Shown piece after piece: positions 11,909 to 23,414 of a DNA stretch of 64,000 nt. This DNA is from an uncultured Actinomycetes bacterium (GTDB taxonomy: Bacteria > Actinomycetota > Thermoleophilia > Gaiellales > Gaiellaceae). Made by a program: the position numbers and the translations under genes. The stretch is taken from positions 562,550-626,549 of the forward strand of contig CAWDJG010000007.1 of NCBI GenBank assembly GCA_963802685.1. Direction: 5' to 3'. The notes beneath the pieces were generated by a model that saw only the letters and a list, made by a program, of their open reading frames with translations, was not told where the DNA came from and made no database searches. Numbering within the stretch: position 1 is the first letter of the stretch; each line of letters begins with the position of its first letter.

Positions 11909-13853
11909 ATGCTAGCGTCAGCGCCGGTGCACGCTCACGGCGAACGTCGGGCCACCACCGGGACCGTCGTCGCCTGGGGCTCGGGTGCCCTCGCATTCGC
12001 CGCATTCTTCCTGGCGCAGGGGACGTCCCTCGGGCCGCTCGTCTGGATCGGCGGCTTCGCCGTCGCCCTTGCGGCCCTCGCCGGCGCCGCTGCGCTCGCC
12101 GGCCTCGTCCCCGTGCCGCGCCTCGACGGGCCTGCTGCGGCCTTCGTCGGCGCGCTCTTCGCGCTTGCCGTGTGGGTCGGGCTGACGACGATCTGGTCGG
12201 TGTCGCCGGAGAGCTCCTGGCAGTACACGAACCGGACGCTCGTCTATGCCGCATTTGCGCTGCTCGGCGTGCTCGCCGCCTCGTCGGTCACGCGTCCGTT
12301 CGAGCGGATCGCCGACGGCACCGCCGCGCTCCTCGCCGCGCTGTTCGTGTGGGCGCTCGTCGCGAAGTGCGTGCCGTCGATCTACTCCGACTACGGCCGG
12401 CTCGCGCGGCTGCGCGCGCCGCTCGACTACTGGAACGAGCTCGCGCTCCTCGCGGCCGTCGGCGTGCCCGTCGCGCTCCGGCTCGCCGCGCGCCGGTACG
12501 CCCTCGGCGCACTCCTTCTCTATCTGGCCGGGCTCACCGTGCTCCTCACGTACTCGCGCTTCGCGATCGTGCTCGCGTGTCTCGCCGCGGTCGCGTGGAT
12601 CGTGTTCGCCGGCGAGCGCGTCGAGAGCCTCGCCGCCGTCGCGCTCGCGGGCGCTGCTGCAGCCGGCGTCTTCGGCGTCGCGCTCGCGCTGCACGGGATC
12701 ACGAAGGACGGGCAGCCGCGCTCCGTGCGCGCCCACGACGGCTGGATCTTCGCGCTCGCCGTCGTCGCGGGCGCCGCCGTGGTGGCCGGTGCCGCCGTGC
12801 TCCTCGCGCGGCGGTGGCCGGTAACGGACGCAGTCCGCCGGCGCGTCGAGCGGGCGGCGGCGCTCGCCGGTGCCGTGGCCGGGCTCGGCGTCGCCGTCGC
12901 GGTCGTCGTCTTCGCCGGCCGGATCTGGCACGCGCTCGCGAATCCGGTCTCGAGCCAGATCGGCTCGGGCAGCGGTCACATCGCGAGCCTCAACTCGAGC
13001 AACCGCTGGCGCTGGTGGCAGGAGGCGTGGCACGCGTTCGTCCACCATCCGGGAGGCGGCACCGGCGGCGGCACGTTCCAGATCACCGACGCGCTGCTGC
13101 ACCGGAGCCCGCTGCGGACGACGGAGCCGCACAACGTCCCGCTCCAGTTCCTCAGTGAGACGGGCATCGTCGGGTTGCTCCTCCTCGTCGCCGCGGGGGT
13201 CGCGGCTGCGATCGGCATCACGCGCGCACGCGCGCGCGCGGGCGGGGCGGAGCGCGCCGCCGTCACGGCGCTTGCGCTCGGCGTCGCCGTCTTCGCCGTT
13301 CATCTCGTCGGCGACATGGACTGGGACTACGTCGGCACGTGCGGGCCGTTGCTCTTCGTCGCGGGCGCGCTCGTCGCTCGCGGTCGTCCGCCTGCGGACG
13401 CTGCGCCGGCACGGCGACGCCTCCTCGCGGTCGCGGCCGTTCTGTTCGCGTGCGGCGGGATCTACTCGCTCGCTGCGCCGTACGTCGCGCAGCGGCAGCT
13501 CCTGAACCCGACGCTCGCGTCGGCGAAGAGCGCGCACGGCGTCGATCCGCTGTCGACCGATGCGCTCCTCGACTGGGCCGTCGTTCGAGAAGCCGGTGCG
13601 CGCGGAGCAGCTGTATCTCGACGCCGCCGCGCTCGAGCCCGAGAACGCGAGCGTCTGGATGGACGTCGGCGACTTCTACTGGTACGTCGAGCGCAGCTGG
13701 ACGAAGGCGTACCTCGCGTACAGCGAGGCGTGGCAGCACGACAAGTACGGGCCTGCCGGAACGCCGTGCGGCCAGCTCGACCAGGCGCGGCACAAGGTGC
13801 TGGGTGTGTGGCCGCCTAGCTGCCCAGGAGGACGACCAGCCGCGACCCACTGA
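11909..13853 (+). pseudogene. Wzy_C / O-antigen-ligase-like polytopic membrane protein with C-terminal TPR-like tail, one frameshift (~13582)
   Basis: ORF 11909-13819 carries 'LLTYSRFAIVLACLAAVAW' and 'EPHNVPLQFLSETGIVG'. The conserved-looking tail 'AEQLYLDAAALEPENASVWMDVGDFYWY...' is in ORF 13560-13853. Confidence 0.7.
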
Positions 13854-17038: not shown

Positions 17039-17140
17039 AGAATCACTCTTTCGGGGTTGCCTTAACCCCCATTCGAGGGGAAAATCCGACCTCCGGCGGG
17101 CTCGGGCGGGGCCGCCGACGTTGTCCCGTAGGGGGTAAGG

Positions 17141-19347
17141 GTGGCCGCAGTCCCGTCCATAGGTCGTGCCGACCGCGCTTCGCGCCCCGCGGCGCCTGAA
17201 GCGGATCTGACGCGCGCGCTCTACGAGAAGTACGCGAACCAGATCTTCCGCTACTGCGTGCACCAGCTCGGCTCGCGTGAGGAGGCCGAGGACGCAGTCC
17301 AGAGCACGTTCCTCAACGCGTTCCGCGGCATCAAGCGCGGCGTCGTCCCCGAGCTCGAGTCCGCGTGGCTCTTCAAGATCGCGGAGAACGTCTGCCTCTC
17401 GCGGCGGCGCTCCTCGTGGCGGCGGGATCGCGTCGAGTCGCCGGCCGACTTCGACGTCGTCGAGGAGGTGACGCCGGCGCCGGGTCGCCTCGCGGACGAG
17501 CTCATCGGCCTGCAGGACGTCCTCGAGCAGATGCCGGAGAGCCAGCGCCGCGCGATCCTCCTCCGCGAATGGCAGGGGCTCTCGTACCGCGAGATCGCCG
17601 ACGAGCTCGAGCTGTCGCAGTCCGCCGTCGAGACGCTCATCTTCCGCGCGCGCCGGTCGCTCGCGCAGGGCCTCGAGCAGCCGCCGGAGCCGGCGGCCAA
17701 GCGGCGGCTCGTGCGCGGCGCCGACTGGGGCAATGTCCTCGCCGGGCTCAAGTCGATGCTCCTCGGCGGTGGCGCCGCGGCAAAGGTCGCCGCCGCGGTG
17801 GCGGTCGTCAGCGCGTCCACCGTCGTCGCGACGGCGCCGGTGCAGCATCACGCGCGGTCGCACCATCCGGCCCCGGCTGCTCCCGCGTCGACGTCGACGA
17901 CGCATGCGGGTGCGGCTCCGGCCGCCGCCACCGGCGGCGGGCACGCGGCGTCGACGCCGGGCGGCACGCATCTCGCGCCGGCGATACACGGGCCGGCGAC
18001 CGCTGTCGTGCCGGGGACCACGCCGGTGGCGACGTTCGATCCGTCACTGCCGGCGGGCGGCTCGCCGGTGTCGTCGCCGGCGGTTGCGCCCGATCAGGCG
18101 ACGACCGACGCGGTCGGAGTGGCTCCGACGATCACGAACGCGCCGGAGACGTCGTCGACTCCCCCCGCCGGCGGCGCGCCGACGGGCGGCAAGTCGCCGG
18201 GCGGCGGCTCGACGTCGGCGCCGCCGGGCGGCTCGACCGGCGGTTCCGGGTCGACGGGGCAGGGCCAGGGCACCGGGCAGGGCAAGGGCACCGGCACCGG
18301 CACCGGCACGGGGCAGGGCACCGGGCAGAGCCAGGGCACGGGTCAAGGGCAGGGCACCGGCACCGGGCAGGGCGCGGGCACGGGGCAGAGCCAGGGCACC
18401 GGGCAGGGGCCAGGGCACGGGCGGGGCAGGGCACCGGGCAGGGCAAGGGCAAGGGGAAGAGCCGCGGGGGCGACCAGGGCCAGGGGCAGGGCAATGGCGG
18501 TGGCAAGGGCCAGAGCGGTCAGGGTCAGGGCGGCGGCGGCAAGGGTCAGAGCGGCGGCAAGGGTCAGACCGGCGGTCAGGGTCAGGGCGGCGGCCAGAGT
18601 CAGAGCGGCGGCCAGGGTCAGACGCAGAGCCAGACGCAGAGTCAGACCCAGACCCAGAATCAGACCCAGACGCAGGGGGAGAGTCAGGGCCAGGGCCAGG
18701 GCCAAGGCCAGGGCCAGGGGCAAGGCCAGTCTCAGGGGCAAGGCCAGGGCCAGGGCGGCCAGGGCAAGGGGAAGGGCGACGGCCACGGCGGCGACCAGGG
18801 CCAGGGCGGCGGCAATCAGGGGCAGGGTGGCGGCAGGGGCCAGTCCGGTGGCCAGGGTCAGGGGCAGGGCAGCAGCTCATCCGGCCAAGGCGATAACGGC
18901 GGTCGGTCCGGTGGCGGCAGCGGCAGCGGGAACGGCGGCGGCCAGCAGGGCCAGGGCGGCTCGGCTCCGCCCGCGCCGCCGGCGCAGCCCGATCCGCCCG
19001 CCGGCTCCGGTGGCAGCTCGGGCTCAGGCAGCCAGGGCGGCTCGGGTGGCCAGACCACCGGCGGCGGTCAGGGCGGAAGCGGCACGCAGGGCGGCGGCGC
19101 CCAGGGCGGCGGCGGCCAGGGTGGGAGCTGGGGTGGCGGCGGAGGCCAGGGCGGCCAGGGCGGCGGTACCCAGGGCAGCGGCGGTCAGGGTGGCAGCGGC
19201 GGCGGCCAGGGTGGCGGTGGCGGCCAGGGTGGCGGTGGCGGCGACCGCGGCGCAGGCGGCCAGGGTGGCGGCGGCCAGGGTGGCGGCGGCGGCGGTCGCG
19301 GCGGTGACCATGGCGGCGGAGGAGCCGGCCATGGCCACGGCCACTAG
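17141..19347 (+). CDS. ECF sigma-70 fused to one membrane span, a P/A/T-rich linker and a ~375-aa Gly/Gln-rich tail; the frame of the G/Q tail changes near 18405-18425
   Basis: Sigma region 2 'EDAVQSTFLNAFRG'. Region 4 'LREWQGLSYREIADELELSQSAVETLIFRARRSL'. TM span 'AAAKVAAAVAVVSASTVVA'. The G/Q tail begins in the frame of ORF 17141 and continues in the frame of ORF 17365, ending 'GHGHGH*' at 19347. Confidence 0.7.
18230..19340 (+). repeat. ~1.1-kb low-complexity triplet-repeat tract (GGC/CAG/ACC/AGC units)
   Basis: Encodes runs such as 'GQGTGQGKGTGTGTGTGQ', 'QTQSQTQSQTQTQNQTQTQ', 'GQGQGQGQGQGQGQSQGQGQGQ'. Long stop-free ORFs occur on both strands. Confidence 0.85.
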
Positions 19348-19365
19348 TTCGGGTAGCGCCGGAGG

Positions 19366-20388
19366 CTAGGCGGCGCTGGCGAGCTCGTCGCCGAGCTCGA
19401 GCTGGAGACGCGAGAGAGCTTCGGTCTCGAGCTGGCGGACCCGCTCGCGGGTCAGACCGAGCTCCTTGCCGATCGTCTCGAGGGAAGCGGACTCGCCGCC
19501 GAAGCCGAAGCGGAGCTCGATGATGCGCCGCTGGCGCTCGGGCAGCTCGGCCACTGCGCGCTGGACGCGCTGGCGGCGGAGCGCCTCCGCGGCCTCTTCG
19601 GCCGGGTCGGCGGACGTCTCGTCGGCGAACAGGTCGCCGAGCTCAGAGTCGCTGTCGGAGCCGAGGCCCTGGTTCAGCGAGACGGAGTCGACGGCGTCGA
19701 GCGCCTCCTCGACGTGCTCCTTCTTGAGGCGCGTGGCCTCGGCGAGCTCGTCGATCGTCGCCTCGCGTCCGAGCTTTGCCTGGAGCTCGGCCGACGCGCG
19801 GTTGAGCTTGATCCGCCGCTCCTGGACGTGGACCGGGATGCGGATCGTCTTCGACTGGTTCGCGACCGCGCGCTGGCAGGCCTGGCGGATCCACCAGGTC
19901 GCGTACGTCGAGAACTTGTAGCCCTTGCGCCAGTCGAACTTCTCCGCGGCGCGGTTCAGGCCGATGACGCCCTCCTGGATCAGGTCGAGCAGCGGGACGT
20001 CGTGGCCCTGGTAGCGCTTCGCGATCGAGACGACGAGGCGGAGGTTCGAGTTGATCATCCGCTCCTTCGCGGCAGGGTCTCCGCGCTCGATCCGCTTCGC
20101 GAGCATGACCTCGTCGGCGGCGGTGAGCAGCTTGTGGCGGCCGGCCGCATCCATGAAGAGCTGGAGCGGGTCGAGCGTGCCCGACGGCGCAGGCGCAGCC
20201 TCGGTCGCCGTAATGGCGGCCCGGACGACGACGTCGCGCTCGTCGAGCGCAGCCTGGAGGGCCGCGATCTCGTCGTCGGCGAGCTCGTGCTCGTCGGCGA
20301 ACGCCTCGAGCTCGCGCTCTTCGACGAAGCCGCGCTCGGCAGCCTCCTCGACGAGGCGCTCGGCAGGCGTCAAATCGTGCAGGTGCAT
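19366..20388 (-). CDS. RpoD-family (group 1/2) sigma-70 factor
   Basis: '[17 protein letters not shown]', '[20 protein letters not shown]', '[14 protein letters not shown]', 'TIRIPVHV', '[18 protein letters not shown]'. 340 aa, with a ~300-nt lower-GC leader. Confidence 0.9.
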
Positions 20389-20680
20389 CGTGTCAGTCGT
20401 CAGTGGAGTTCCTCTCCTGGTGGTTCTAGGGGACCGCGCCCTTCGCGGGCCCGGAGGCCCCGGCGCGCGGGGCGATCCCGCGATCAGCCGGTCGGCCCCT
20501 CTAGTTACTTATAGAACGGGTTAGCGCCCCTGTCCATTCCCAAACATCGCATTCTTGCGATTCCCTTACAACGAGGGCGACTTTCAAGTCGTATTCTGGC
20601 CTCCTTTTCTCCGGGGATCATCCGCCCTCCCGATGAGCAAAGGATGAGATCTCCGCTAAATCTCCGTGAAGGCTGCGGGG

Positions 20681-20686
20681 TACAAT
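20681..20686 (+). promoter_or_regulatory. candidate -10 box (TACAAT) for tRNA-Thr
   Basis: TACAAT lies 12 nt upstream of the tRNA 5' end. No convincing -35 element. Confidence 0.3.
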
Positions 20687-20697
20687 CGCTCCCCCAG

Positions 20698-20770
20698 GCC
20701 GACGTAGCTCAGCTGGTAGAGCACATCACTCGTAATGATGGGGTCCACGGTTCGAATCCGCGCGTCGGCT
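20698..20770 (+). tRNA. tRNA-Thr (anticodon CGT)
   Basis: Hand-folded cloverleaf. Acceptor GCCGACG/CGTCGGC, D arm GCTC-AGCTGGTA-GAGC, anticodon arm CATCA-CTCGTAA-TGATG, T loop TTCGAAT. No encoded CCA. One A:C mismatch in the T stem. Confidence 0.9.
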
Positions 20771-20811
20771 TCTCCGATGAACCGATCCGGCCGCCGGGAC
20801 GAACACCGGGC

Positions 20812-21366
20812 GTGAGCCGGCCTCTGGCCCATCTGTCCGACGAGGCGCTCGTCCTCCTCGCCGCGCGCTCCGAGCAGTCGGCGCTCGCGGAGCTGTACGA
20901 CCGCTACGGCCGCACGGCGTACGGGCTCGCGCTGCGCGTCCTCCGCGACGAGGCGCTCGCCGAGGACGCCGTCCAGGAAGGCTTCCTCGCCGTCTGGCGG
21001 ACGGCAGCGCGGTTCGTGCCCGAGCGCGGCAAGGCGAGCACGTGGATCCTCACGCTCGTGCACCGCCGCGCCGTCGACACCGTGCGGCGCGAGCAGCGCC
21101 GCCGCGCCGATACGCTCGAGGGCGCGCCCGAGCCGGCGGTCGGCAGGCCGCGGACGAGCACGCCTGGCTCCGGCTGCAGCGCGAGCGCGTGCAGGACGCG
21201 CTGCGCACGCTGCCCGACGCGCAGCGCGAGGCGCTCGAGCTCGCGTACTACGGCGGCTTCAGCCAGTCGGAGCTCGCCGAGAGGCTCGGCCAGCCGCTCG
21301 GTACGATCAAGAGCCAGGATGTTCGCCGGCCTCGCGCGGATGCGCGAGCTGCTCGGCGAGCCCGGA
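20812..21366 (+). pseudogene. SigK-like ECF sigma factor, two frameshifts (~21135, ~21315), no stop before the anti-sigma gene
   Basis: Region 2 is in ORF 20644 ('[38 protein letters not shown]'). Region 4 is in ORF 21042 ('[35 protein letters not shown]'). The frame then returns to the first one. Confidence 0.75.
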
Positions 21367-22014
21367 ATGGAGATGTCATGGAGCGTGGACCTCCACGAGC
21401 TGACCGCGGCGTACGCGCTCGACGCGCTCGACGCCGACGAGGCGGAGGCGTACGAGGCGCACCTCGCGCAGTGCGAGCGCTGCCGCACGGAGCTCGCCGC
21501 GCTGAGCGAGACGGCGACCGCGCTCGCGTTCGGCGTCGACGCGCCGCCGCCGCCGCGCGCGTCTGCGCGCCGCGATCCTCGACGCCGCCGCCGCCGAGCG
21601 CGCGAACGTCGTCCCGCTGCCGCGGCGGCCGTGGGCGTTCCGCGTCGCCGCGGCCGCGGCGGCAGTCGCAGCATGCGCGGCGCGTCGGCCTCGGCGTCTG
21701 GGGCGCGAATCGCAGCCGGAGCACGCACGCAGGCGCTGAGCGCGGTCGTCGTCGTCGGCGCCGACAGGCACGCGACGCTGACCGTCTCCGGGCTCGCCGC
21801 CGCGCCGCACGGAAAGACGTACGAGGCGTGGATCATCCCGCCCGGCGGTCATGCGCGGCCGGCCGGGCTCTTCGCCGGCGGCGACGGCACGACGGTCGTC
21901 CGTCTGCGTCGGCACGGTGCCGCGCGGCGCCGATCGTCGCCGCGACGGTCGAGCGTGCCGGCGGCGCGAGCGCGCCGACGACGCCGCCGTTCTCTCAGCG
22001 CGAACGACTTGTAA
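21367..22014 (+). pseudogene. RskA-like anti-sigma-K factor, at least four frameshifts
   Basis: '[39 protein letters not shown]' (zf-HC2). The TM span and the C-terminal '[13 protein letters not shown]...[17 protein letters not shown]' are spread over all three forward frames. Confidence 0.7.
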
Positions 22015-22084
22015 GAACTGTCCTCCGAACCGGTCCGGGCGCTCGGGCGAATCAGCGCCGACCCCCGTCCACCAGGAGGAGCAC

Positions 22085-23414
22085 GTGAAGAAGAAGCTCA
22101 TCTTCGCCTTGCTCGCCGCCGCCGCTGTCACGGCCATCGGGTCTCGCCGCCGCCCGCGGCGGCGGCACCGGCGCCGCGACGGCGTCGAGCCACCGCGAGG
22201 CACCGCTGATCTCGCAGGACCCGACGGCGGACAACACGGACCTGTACGCGTTCGTGTCGCCCGACAAGCCGTCGACCGCGACGATCATCTCGAACTGGAT
22301 CCCGGGTGAGGATCCCGCCGCCGGGCCGAACTACTACACGTTCAGCCCGACCGCGCGGTACGACATCTACGCCGACACGAACGGCGACGGCAAGCCGGAC
22401 GTCACCTGGCAGTTCCGGTTCACGAACCAGCCGAGCCAGTTCTTCCTCGGCAACACGCAGCAGAAGTACACGTCACGAAGATCGCCGGCGGCAAGTCGAC
22501 CGTCGTCGGCTCGGGTCTGCTCACGCCGCCCGACAACATCGGGCCGCGGTCGACGCCGAACTACGACGCGCTCGCCGCGAAGGGCATCCACACGCTCGAG
22601 CGACGGCAGCACGGTCTTCGCCGGCCAGCGTGACGATCCGTTCTTCGCCGACGTCGGCGCGATCTTCGACCTCGTCGCGATCCGCGACGGCACGGGTGCG
22701 ACCGGAGGCGGCAAGGACTTCCTCGCCGGCTACGGCGTGCACTCGATCGCCCTGCAGGTGCCGAAGTCGATGCTCGACAACGGCGGCAACCACGTCGTCG
22801 GCATCTGGGCCGCGACCGACCGCCAGAAGGTCACGGTCGCGCACGGCAAGGCGCAGACGAAGTGGGTGCAGGTCAGCCGCCTCGGCAACCCGCTGATCAA
22901 CGAGGTCGATCATCCCGACGAACAAGAAGGACTACTGGAACAGCACGTCGCCCGCGAACGACAAGCAGTTCGCGACAGTACTACACGAGCCCGATCCTCG
23001 CGGCCGTGCTCGCAGAAGCTGTATCCGAAGTTCGGTCCCTTCCAAGCAGATCGGGCCGCAGCGACCTCACGCAGGTCCTGCTCACCGGCATCCCGAAGCT
23101 CAACTAGACCGGCACGACGCTCGCCGACGAGCTCCGGCTCAACCTGTCGATCGCGCCGACCGCGGCCGACAAGGTCAACCGGCTCGGCGTCATCGGCGGC
23201 GACAACGCCGGCTATCCGAACGGCCGCCGGCTCGGTGACGACGTCATCGACATCGACGAGCGCGTCGTCGCCGGCGAGCTGATCGGTCACGCGCTGCCGC
23301 TCGGCGACGGCGTCGACGCGAACGACGTGCCGTACCTCGCGTCGTTCCCGTACGTCGCTCCGCCGTTCAGCGGCTTCGACGACACGCACGGCCAGCTCAC
23401 AAGAAGACGGGTTC
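22085..23414 (+). pseudogene. DUF4331 family secreted protein, at least seven frame changes plus an in-frame TAG (23105-23107)
   Basis: GTG at 22085 after AGGAGGAG. Segments: 'SSHREAPLISQDPTADNTDLYAFVSPD', 'AGQRDDPFFADVGAIFDL', 'LGNPLINEV', 'NRLGVIGGDNAGYPNGRRLGDDVIDI', 'DANDVPYLASFPYVAPP'. These segments lie in alternating frames. The 3' end is undefined. Confidence 0.8.

Follow-up and report, generated by a model that had tools for sequence, protein, structure and literature searches.

The question raised by this locus is whether an open reading frame (ORF) that begins as a sigma factor and can be read into either of two chemically different repetitive tails represents a single gene and, if so, which of the two tails belongs to it. 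The locus lies in a window of 64,000 nucleotides, by which we mean the whole stretch analysed (contig CAWDJG010000007.1 of assembly GCA_963802685.1, positions 562,550 to 626,549 of the forward strand), from an uncultured actinobacterium of the family Gaiellaceae, and the ORF at 17141-19369 (+, 742 residues) is present as given. It is well supported by our analysis that the gene extends from 17141 to 19347 after the repair of a single base and encodes a 735-residue protein composed of an extracytoplasmic function (ECF) sigma factor, a hydrophobic span and a low-complexity tail of about 500 residues. The second tail frame is equally well accounted for by an error-prone assembly together with DNA of roughly 80% GC in which out-of-frame stops cannot arise. 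These two points, one gene and an artefactual second tail frame, are highly probable. For the explanation as a whole, which adds a proposal that the sigma factor would be kept at the membrane by an anchor of its own and released by proteolysis, we estimate a probability of about 0.72. The gene is composed of the following parts.

17141-17218 (+): GTG start codon and N-terminal peptide MAAVPSIGRA..., residues 2-10 at least 90% conserved among 61 sequences.
17219-17425 (+): sigma-70 region 2, residues 27-95 (Pfam PF04542 Sigma70_r2, E = 2.4e-11).
17510-17662 (+): sigma-70 region 4, residues 124-174 (Pfam PF08281 Sigma70_r4_2, E = 3e-17).
17702-17761 (+): basic juxtamembrane helix, residues 188-207, RRLVRGADWGNVLAGLKSML (AlphaFold2 helix with a predicted local distance difference test score, pLDDT, of about 60; conserved segment).
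17762-17842 (+): Ala/Val-rich hydrophobic span, residues 208-234 (best Kyte-Doolittle mean over 19 residues 1.97).
17843-18256 (+): non-repetitive linker rich in Pro, Ala, Thr, Ser and Gly (composition; the consensus of the 61 sequences dissolves after P233).
18257-18426 (+): beginning of the G/Q/T repeats, still in the sigma reading frame (Tandem Repeats Finder: arrays of period 6, 12 and 18; translation).
18405-18426 (+): frame break (G4 run at 18423-18426 one G short, or two extra bases at 18410 and 18423).
18424-19347 (+): remaining G/Q/S/T tail in the true coding frame, identical to that of ORF 17365-19347 (codon-position GC; shared GHGH ending).
18427-19369 (+): Arg/Ala-rich continuation of the original frame, judged non-coding (codon shuffles; bias towards Nanopore assemblies).

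An earlier, sequence-only reading of the locus had described a complete ECF sigma factor that continues without a stop into one hydrophobic span, and our results agree with it. No stop codon intervenes between the sigma frame and the hydrophobic stretch, and in addition to regions 2 and 4 the Pfam search matched Sigma70_ECF, with no match to region 3 or region 1 in the window protein. The NCBIfam model TIGR02937 (sigma70-ECF) scored 70.3 bits against a cutoff of 42.9, and the specific NCBIfam ECF models all remained well under their own cutoffs for this protein. An AlphaFold2 run with the 61-sequence alignment produced helices at residues 19-95 (sigma2) and 115-179 (sigma4) with a pLDDT of about 90, which match the sigma2/sigma4 layout, and the nearest solved structures are SigL and SigE of Mycobacterium tuberculosis. 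The window protein is a member of the ECF group (group 4) of the sigma-70 family, in which sigma2 and sigma4 are present and regions 1.1 and 3 are absent. The peptide MAAVPSIGRA (17141-17170) lies N-terminal of sigma region 2; the orthologues start with GTG, TTG or ATG, and the codons after the start vary synonymously at the third position. This peptide might be a degron or provide a regulatory contact.

The part downstream of the span likewise corresponds to what had been read from the letters, namely a Pro/Ala/Thr-rich linker followed by repeats. The linker (residues 235-365) consists of 21% A, 17% P, 15% G, 14% T and 11% S, and tandem arrays of CAGGGC-type units begin at about 18257. The G/Q repeat tail of about 370 residues contains 50% Gly and 21% Gln; Pfam and NCBIfam found no domain in the tail in either of the two frames tested, and AlphaFold2 gave no confident structure from residue 211 onward. 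ORF 17365-19347 is the frame that contains the strings quoted from this tail, QTQSQTQSQTQTQNQTQTQ and a terminal GHGHGH before the stop; in this frame the tail ends with GGAGHGHGH and the stop codon occupies 19345-19347.

The fusion of sigma factor, span and tail is genuine and is not peculiar to this window. A protein search with residues 1-330 returned thousands of matches, and among the 120 matches listed, which are 63-90% identical, 231-578 residues long (most 300-580) and derived mostly from metagenome-assembled genomes (MAGs) of Gaiellaceae, sigma domains occur in all and a long tail in most. A scan of species-representative genomes gave 366 matching stretches, of which the best 67 loci belong nearly all to MAGs of Gaiellaceae or Gaiellales. 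Taken together, sigma domain, span and low-complexity tail are encoded without interruption by one ORF in over 100 independent assemblies of Gaiellaceae, and the earlier proposal of a sigma factor fused to a span and a disordered tail is confirmed to this extent, the membrane nature of the span being probable. In the alignment of 61 sequences, conservation is very high through P233 and is then lost, and the residues G209, K215, A217, A218, A221, V222 and P233 of the span are invariant. The gene order is conserved as well: epimerase, tmk, holB, the ECF-span-tail gene and then, in convergent orientation, a sigma-70-type gene. No gene for an anti-sigma factor adjoins the ECF-span-tail gene, and several MAGs possess two paralogues. 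It is well supported that the family is present throughout the Gaiellaceae at a fixed chromosomal position. A literature search on membrane-tethered sigma factors found nothing relevant to it, and as far as we found the family is undescribed.

With regard to the two tails, the G/Q reading does change frame at 18405-18426, as had been noticed. If the G4 run at 18423-18426 is lengthened by one G, a single ORF of 735 residues results (...GTGQGPGHGRGQGTGQGKGK...), which ends with GHGHGH and the stop codon. An alternative repair, the removal of one base at 18410 and another at 18423, creates a single ORF of 734 residues (...GQGQGTGGQGTGQGK...). The missing G is the simplest repair. For the comparison with relatives, a protein-to-DNA aligner was written in which frame changes are allowed at a penalty, and seven intact homologues were used as queries. 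Each of them needs one frame change near the break. In six of the seven it is a 1-nt deletion at 18390-18453, mostly at 18405-18423, and unlike these the homologue P0058 requires a 1-nt insertion at 18353; the homologue P0002 shows two further compensating events downstream in the tail. The GC content by codon position points in the same direction: after 18424 it amounts to 0.77-0.85 at the first, 0.50-0.65 at the second and about 0.85 at the third position of the second frame, which is how coding sequence in this genome looks and from which the first frame departs. Furthermore, the GHGH ending reached in the second frame is the commonest ending of the family (15 of 108 tails) and is shared with the closest homologues. 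The frame change almost certainly reflects a sequencing error of one base, in DNA of very high GC content.

The original frame is indeed open to 19369 and rich in Arg and Ala, but the weight that had been placed on this openness is not justified. When the codon order of the G/Q frame was shuffled, the +1 (Arg/Ala) frame stayed open in 2000 of 2000 shuffles, and the codons GGC, CAG, GGT and AGC are unable to form stops in the Arg/Ala register. The openness therefore carries no information. An assembly error had been named as one possible cause of the shift, and a sequence error is in fact its best explanation. However, the error is not the repeat collapse that had been suspected, which is ruled out because the loss of units of 6, 12 or 18 nt keeps the frame, and a single-base indel takes its place. 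The periods of all tandem repeats found (6, 9, 12, 15, 18, 21, 27, 36, 54 and 69) are multiples of three, so that slippage of repeat units alters the length of the tail and leaves its frame unaffected. In exact-protein look-ups with the 742-residue ORF, the adjacent sigma-70 factor and Tmk, no identical record was found, and the best relatives are 78-87% identical.

The mean hydrophobicity of the span in the 61 homologues is 1.95, compared with 1.94 for the transmembrane segment of the RskA-type anti-sigma factor encoded by the adjacent gene of the orthologous locus. Over the 27 residues that precede the span, the mean net charge is +3.9 in the 61 homologues, and the region after it has +2.0 plus about three His. 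In Actinobacteria, hypervariable regions rich in Pro, Ala, Ser and Thr on the C-terminal side of a single span are typically extracytoplasmic linkers. The span is therefore probably one transmembrane helix, with the sigma domain on its cytoplasmic side. Upstream of the gene, two conserved elements were recognised.

17057-17085 (+): candidate sigma-70-like promoter, -35 TTGCCT (17057-17062), 17-nt spacer, -10 GAAAAT (17080-17085), found by reading the sequence.
17094-17117 (+): hairpin in the 5' untranslated region (UTR), stem CGGCGG/CCGCCG, loop motif TCGGGCGG (conservation and covariation).

The blocks GGGTTGC and NANNNT recur with equal spacing upstream of the orthologues. An autoregulated ECF-type promoter (AAC...CGT type) was considered and rejected, as the conserved blocks look like TTGC-17-NANNNT instead, and the putative promoter appears to resemble the housekeeping type more than the ECF type. 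Across 18 Gaiellaceae loci, the loop of the 5'-UTR hairpin (YTCGGGCGGR) hardly varies, and compensatory changes occur in five of seven stem pairs; a search of Rfam gave no match for it.

From these observations, a mechanism of membrane tethering and proteolytic release can be put forward tentatively, at slightly less than even odds. The sigma gene would be transcribed constitutively from its housekeeping-type promoter, and control would then be post-translational, because the promoter appears to be of this type. The sigma domain would be retained in the cytoplasm at the membrane by its own C-terminal anchor, with the disordered tail outside the membrane in the cell envelope. A signal from the envelope would expose the tail or trigger its cleavage, after which an intramembrane protease of the site-2 type might cut the Gly/Ser/Thr/Pro-containing span and the free sigma factor would direct transcription. 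Helix-destabilising Gly, Ser, Thr and Pro residues are favoured by site-2 proteases. Such a route follows by analogy the one demonstrated for the fused sigma/anti-sigma protein IutY and suggested for fusions of the groups ECF48, ECF52 and ECF53, which are described below. Since the protein contains no anti-sigma domain, tethering itself would be the inhibitory principle.

Several results weigh against this arrangement. AlphaFold2 called no helix in the hydrophobic span, where its pLDDT stays below 50, positive charge is only modestly more abundant before the span than after it, and a rough summation of values from the Hessa insertion scale comes out positive; membrane insertion is therefore no more than probable. 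With no anti-sigma domain, a tethered sigma factor might also be active in place. These points are the strength of an explanation in which the sigma factor works while tethered, directing RNA polymerase to membrane-proximal promoters, or in which the span is not a membrane segment at all and the disordered tail is cytoplasmic. It is favoured by the lack of an anti-sigma domain between sigma4 and the span and by the AlphaFold2 and charge results just given. However, relatives in the Thermoleophilia, described below, pair the same kind of span and tail with a zinc-finger anti-sigma motif, an architecture for which proteolytic release has been proposed (PMC8999054). The hydrophobicity of the span also equals that of an established anti-sigma transmembrane segment encoded nearby, and the span is followed by a region of the kind that generally forms extracytoplasmic linkers. 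We regard this explanation as unlikely.

A further alternative concerns the frame break and takes it as a real mutation, so that the gene is either a pseudogene or encodes a tail that switches after about 60 G/Q residues to a strongly basic Arg/Ala sequence of about 315 residues. This is what the sequence as given reads, and its assessment depends on the quality of the assembly. Frame-plot segmentation and an ORF filter based on GC at the third codon position were too noisy, and frame breaks were counted by frameshift-aware alignment with controls instead, using as queries the orthologous proteins of a short-read Gaiellaceae MAG (L049). In addition to the tail break, 16 frame-disrupting events were found in 2561 aligned codons of the window. 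One affects a Wzy_C-type gene (about 13580), two a SigK-like gene (21149 and 21315) and six an RskA-like gene; a DUF4331 gene has another six frame changes as well as a stop codon within its frame at 23105 (KLN-stop-TG versus KLNETG in L049). The identity to the L049 orthologues rises from 65-69% to 85-92% once shifts are allowed, and the shifts are therefore real disruptions relative to the orthologues. In the four short-read MAG loci that were compared, no event was found inside genes, all events there falling in divergent N-termini or in spurious alignments to paralogues. Two loci from MAGs of the Microflora Danica project, which are Nanopore assemblies (PMC12313526), yielded nine (L001) and six (L002) raw events, holB included. 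Among the Microflora Danica loci, 8 of 18 have an Arg-rich tail read out of frame, versus 2 of 41 others (Fisher p = 6e-4), and protein calls from these MAGs cannot be relied on in GC-rich low-complexity regions; the Arg-rich tails of P0017, P0041 and P0056 are examples. The window behaves like an error-prone long-read assembly. In the Microflora Danica loci L001, L002, L014, L017, L034, L040, L062 and L067, breaks were also seen frequently in the sigma tail and in housekeeping neighbours such as holB and the epimerase gene.

In favour of a real mutation, the other indels of the window can be cited. None of them lies in a homopolymer, they cluster at 21.1-23.1 kb, and together with the in-frame stop they could reflect either a poor local consensus or real gene decay. 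Methylation-linked Nanopore error would predict indels in homopolymers or near GATC; besides avoiding homopolymers, the indels show no significant association with GATC (5 of 17 events versus a background of 15%, p = 0.09). Against a real mutation stand the association of Arg-rich tails with Nanopore MAGs, the similar break densities of L001 and L002 in housekeeping genes such as holB, and the position of the tail break, which adjoins a G4 run in a G-rich repeat and is the only break of the window next to such a run. In addition, the G/Q frame downstream keeps a coding-type GC pattern and the GHGH ending, which would not be expected after long disuse. On balance, a real mutation is improbable.

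The deliberate production of both tail chemistries, whether through programmed slippage during translation or transcription or through phase variation of the repeat, a toggle of the latter kind having been suggested in the sequence-only reading, can draw on two open frames and a shift inside a repeat tract but is very improbable, given that a direct reading of 18404-18426 contains no slippery heptamer of the form X XXY YYZ and no homopolymer longer than 4 nt (the G4 runs, the sole candidate tract), that the repeat units are frame-neutral, that the homologues from short-read assemblies keep a single frame, and that the codon content forces the Arg/Ala frame to be open.

With one gene and one tail as the preferred explanation, the tail of the window protein can be compared with those of its family. 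That a G/Q-rich tail is unusual for a sigma factor had been noted, and the window copy proves to be an outlier even within its own family. In the family, the median tail is 242 residues long; most tails are rich in Ala, Pro, Ser and Thr, with medians of 10% G and 4% Q. The repaired window tail is the extreme of the family, with 500 residues after the span, 41% G and 16% Q. The search for homologues with similar tails, which had been recommended, thus shows low-complexity tails family-wide and, as the closest relatives, a G/Q-richer subgroup ending with GHGH. In-frame expansion of CAGGGC-type repeats would account for the exceptional length and G/Q richness of the window copy. The last ten tail residues are enriched in G (3.3-fold), H (3.3-fold), K (2.7-fold) and N (4.5-fold) and depleted in A, P, T and V, and the endings GHGH, GKGK, GSNH and GNDK recur (window tip 19318-19344; proteins P0001-P0120). 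As speculation, this Gly-His/Lys/Asn tip might bind anionic wall polymers or metal. Some members also contain long His/Asp/Gly runs that resemble metal-binding sequences.

An even broader proposal, which we consider unlikely to hold in full, is that the family is a core sigma factor of the Gaiellaceae controlled purely by covalent tethering. In this case, a tail that is probably glycosylated would sense the integrity or hydration of the envelope, its conserved tip would contact the wall or metal, and its length and chemistry would be tuned by in-frame repeat expansion, of which the window version would be an extreme. If true, this would be the simplest possible form of one-component sigma/anti-sigma signalling, and if the tail senses, it would be relevant to the biology of disordered regions in bacteria. 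The family offers a natural test of whether tethering alone regulates a sigma factor, in bacteria that are known almost only from environmental assemblies, and it illustrates that in-frame repeat expansion can build a Gly/Gln domain of 370 residues on a signalling protein. The locus is also a warning case for annotation: with at least 17 frame-disrupting events in about 11 kb of the window, it demonstrates how indels in long-read MAGs fuse, split or re-frame genes, while a GC content of 75-80% automatically keeps out-of-frame ORFs open.

Some of the neighbouring genes deserve a separate description. The convergent sigma-70-type factor (19366-20388, -, 340 residues) contains regions 1.2, 2, 3 and 4 and has no long region 1.1; it is 95% identical to its L049 orthologue, and the arrangement is kept in all close loci. 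The gene for an O-antigen-ligase-like membrane protein (Wzy_C, 11909-13850, +) shows a frame change at about 13580-13595. Compared with four orthologues, this break lies about 85 codons before the end of the gene, and the listed ORF stops at 13819 in the wrong frame. A SigK-like ECF sigma factor and an RskA-like anti-sigma factor (zf-HC2, RskA_N, RskA_C) form one ORF of 456 residues in the window (20644-22014, +). L049 has separate, overlapping ORFs for the two, each in its own frame. In the window, the SigK-like gene is without the sigma stop at about 21390, and the breaks at 21149 and 21315 hide its region 4 from Pfam. This single SigK-RskA ORF is probably another artefactual fusion. In the RskA-like and DUF4331 genes (21385-23413, +), the breaks are concentrated within about 2 kb.

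Known systems include fusions of a sigma and an anti-sigma factor. IutY of Pseudomonas putida is a FecI/FecR-type hybrid (ECF243) that is freed by Prc and RseP, and its sequential proteolysis has been shown experimentally (PMC8999054; PMC5411451). If its span is inserted as described above, the window protein resembles IutY in that one polypeptide has an ECF sigma factor at its N terminus, crosses the membrane once and ends in a part outside the cytoplasm. However, the FecR-type anti-sigma domain of IutY and its folded periplasmic domain, which addresses a TonB-dependent receptor, are absent; Pfam and NCBIfam found no FecR or other domain beyond the sigma regions. Moreover, unlike the host of IutY, the window organism is an actinobacterium of the Gram-positive type. 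The SigK-RskA pair, present at 20644-22014 and an example of a canonical ECF sigma factor with a separate single-pass anti-sigma factor, likewise has an Ala/Val-rich single span of equal hydrophobicity for retention at the membrane and a variable outer part. In contrast to this pair, the tether of the window protein would be covalent, and there is no anti-sigma domain that masks sigma2 and sigma4.

The actinobacterial groups ECF48, ECF52 and ECF53 are described as having a zinc-finger anti-sigma domain, at least one transmembrane helix and extensions of up to 400 residues, and SCO4117 of Streptomyces coelicolor (ECF52) has an additional proline-rich region and a carbohydrate-binding module. 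For these groups, including SCO4117, proteolytic release has been proposed (PMC8999054; PMC5826349). The groups are restricted to Actinobacteria (PMC5826349; PMC8999054), and the main text of the ECF reclassification paper contains no description of ECF48, ECF52, ECF53 or ECF123 (PMC7826278). A likeness to ECF52 had been suggested for the window protein, and it holds for the general architecture, namely a C-terminal segment that in the window protein is probably membrane-spanning, a long Pro-rich extension that would lie outside the membrane, and the absence of a separate gene for an anti-sigma factor, but not for the domains. Unlike ECF52, the window protein contains neither a zf-HC2/ZAS domain between sigma4 and the span, which are only about 25 residues apart, nor a carbohydrate-binding module, and its tail is purely of low complexity and G/Q-rich. 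Pfam gave no zf-HC2 match in the window protein, which contains no H-x3-C-x2-C motif and is free of Cys beyond residue 85. The Gaiellaceae family resembles fusions of the ECF52/53 type in outline and lacks the zinc finger and the carbohydrate module that define them.

A further comparison is provided by more distant relatives from Thermoleophilaceae, Solirubrobacteraceae and Conexibacter (L069-L080), whose sigma domains are 36-42% identical to that of the window protein. They share with it a Gly/Ala-rich hydrophobic span after an L-K motif, followed by a low-complexity tail. Unlike the Gaiellaceae family, these relatives contain a segment of about 55-80 residues with the motif C-x24-H-x3-C-x2-C between sigma4 and the span; in the three that were searched, the Pfam zf-HC2 model gave no match at E <= 0.01, and the zinc motif was recognised by eye. 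As judged from this motif, their layout is ECF48/52/53-like. The Gaiellaceae proteins align with them on both sides of the missing zinc-motif segment, and the Gaiellaceae family looks like a derivative of this layout that lost its anti-sigma segment.

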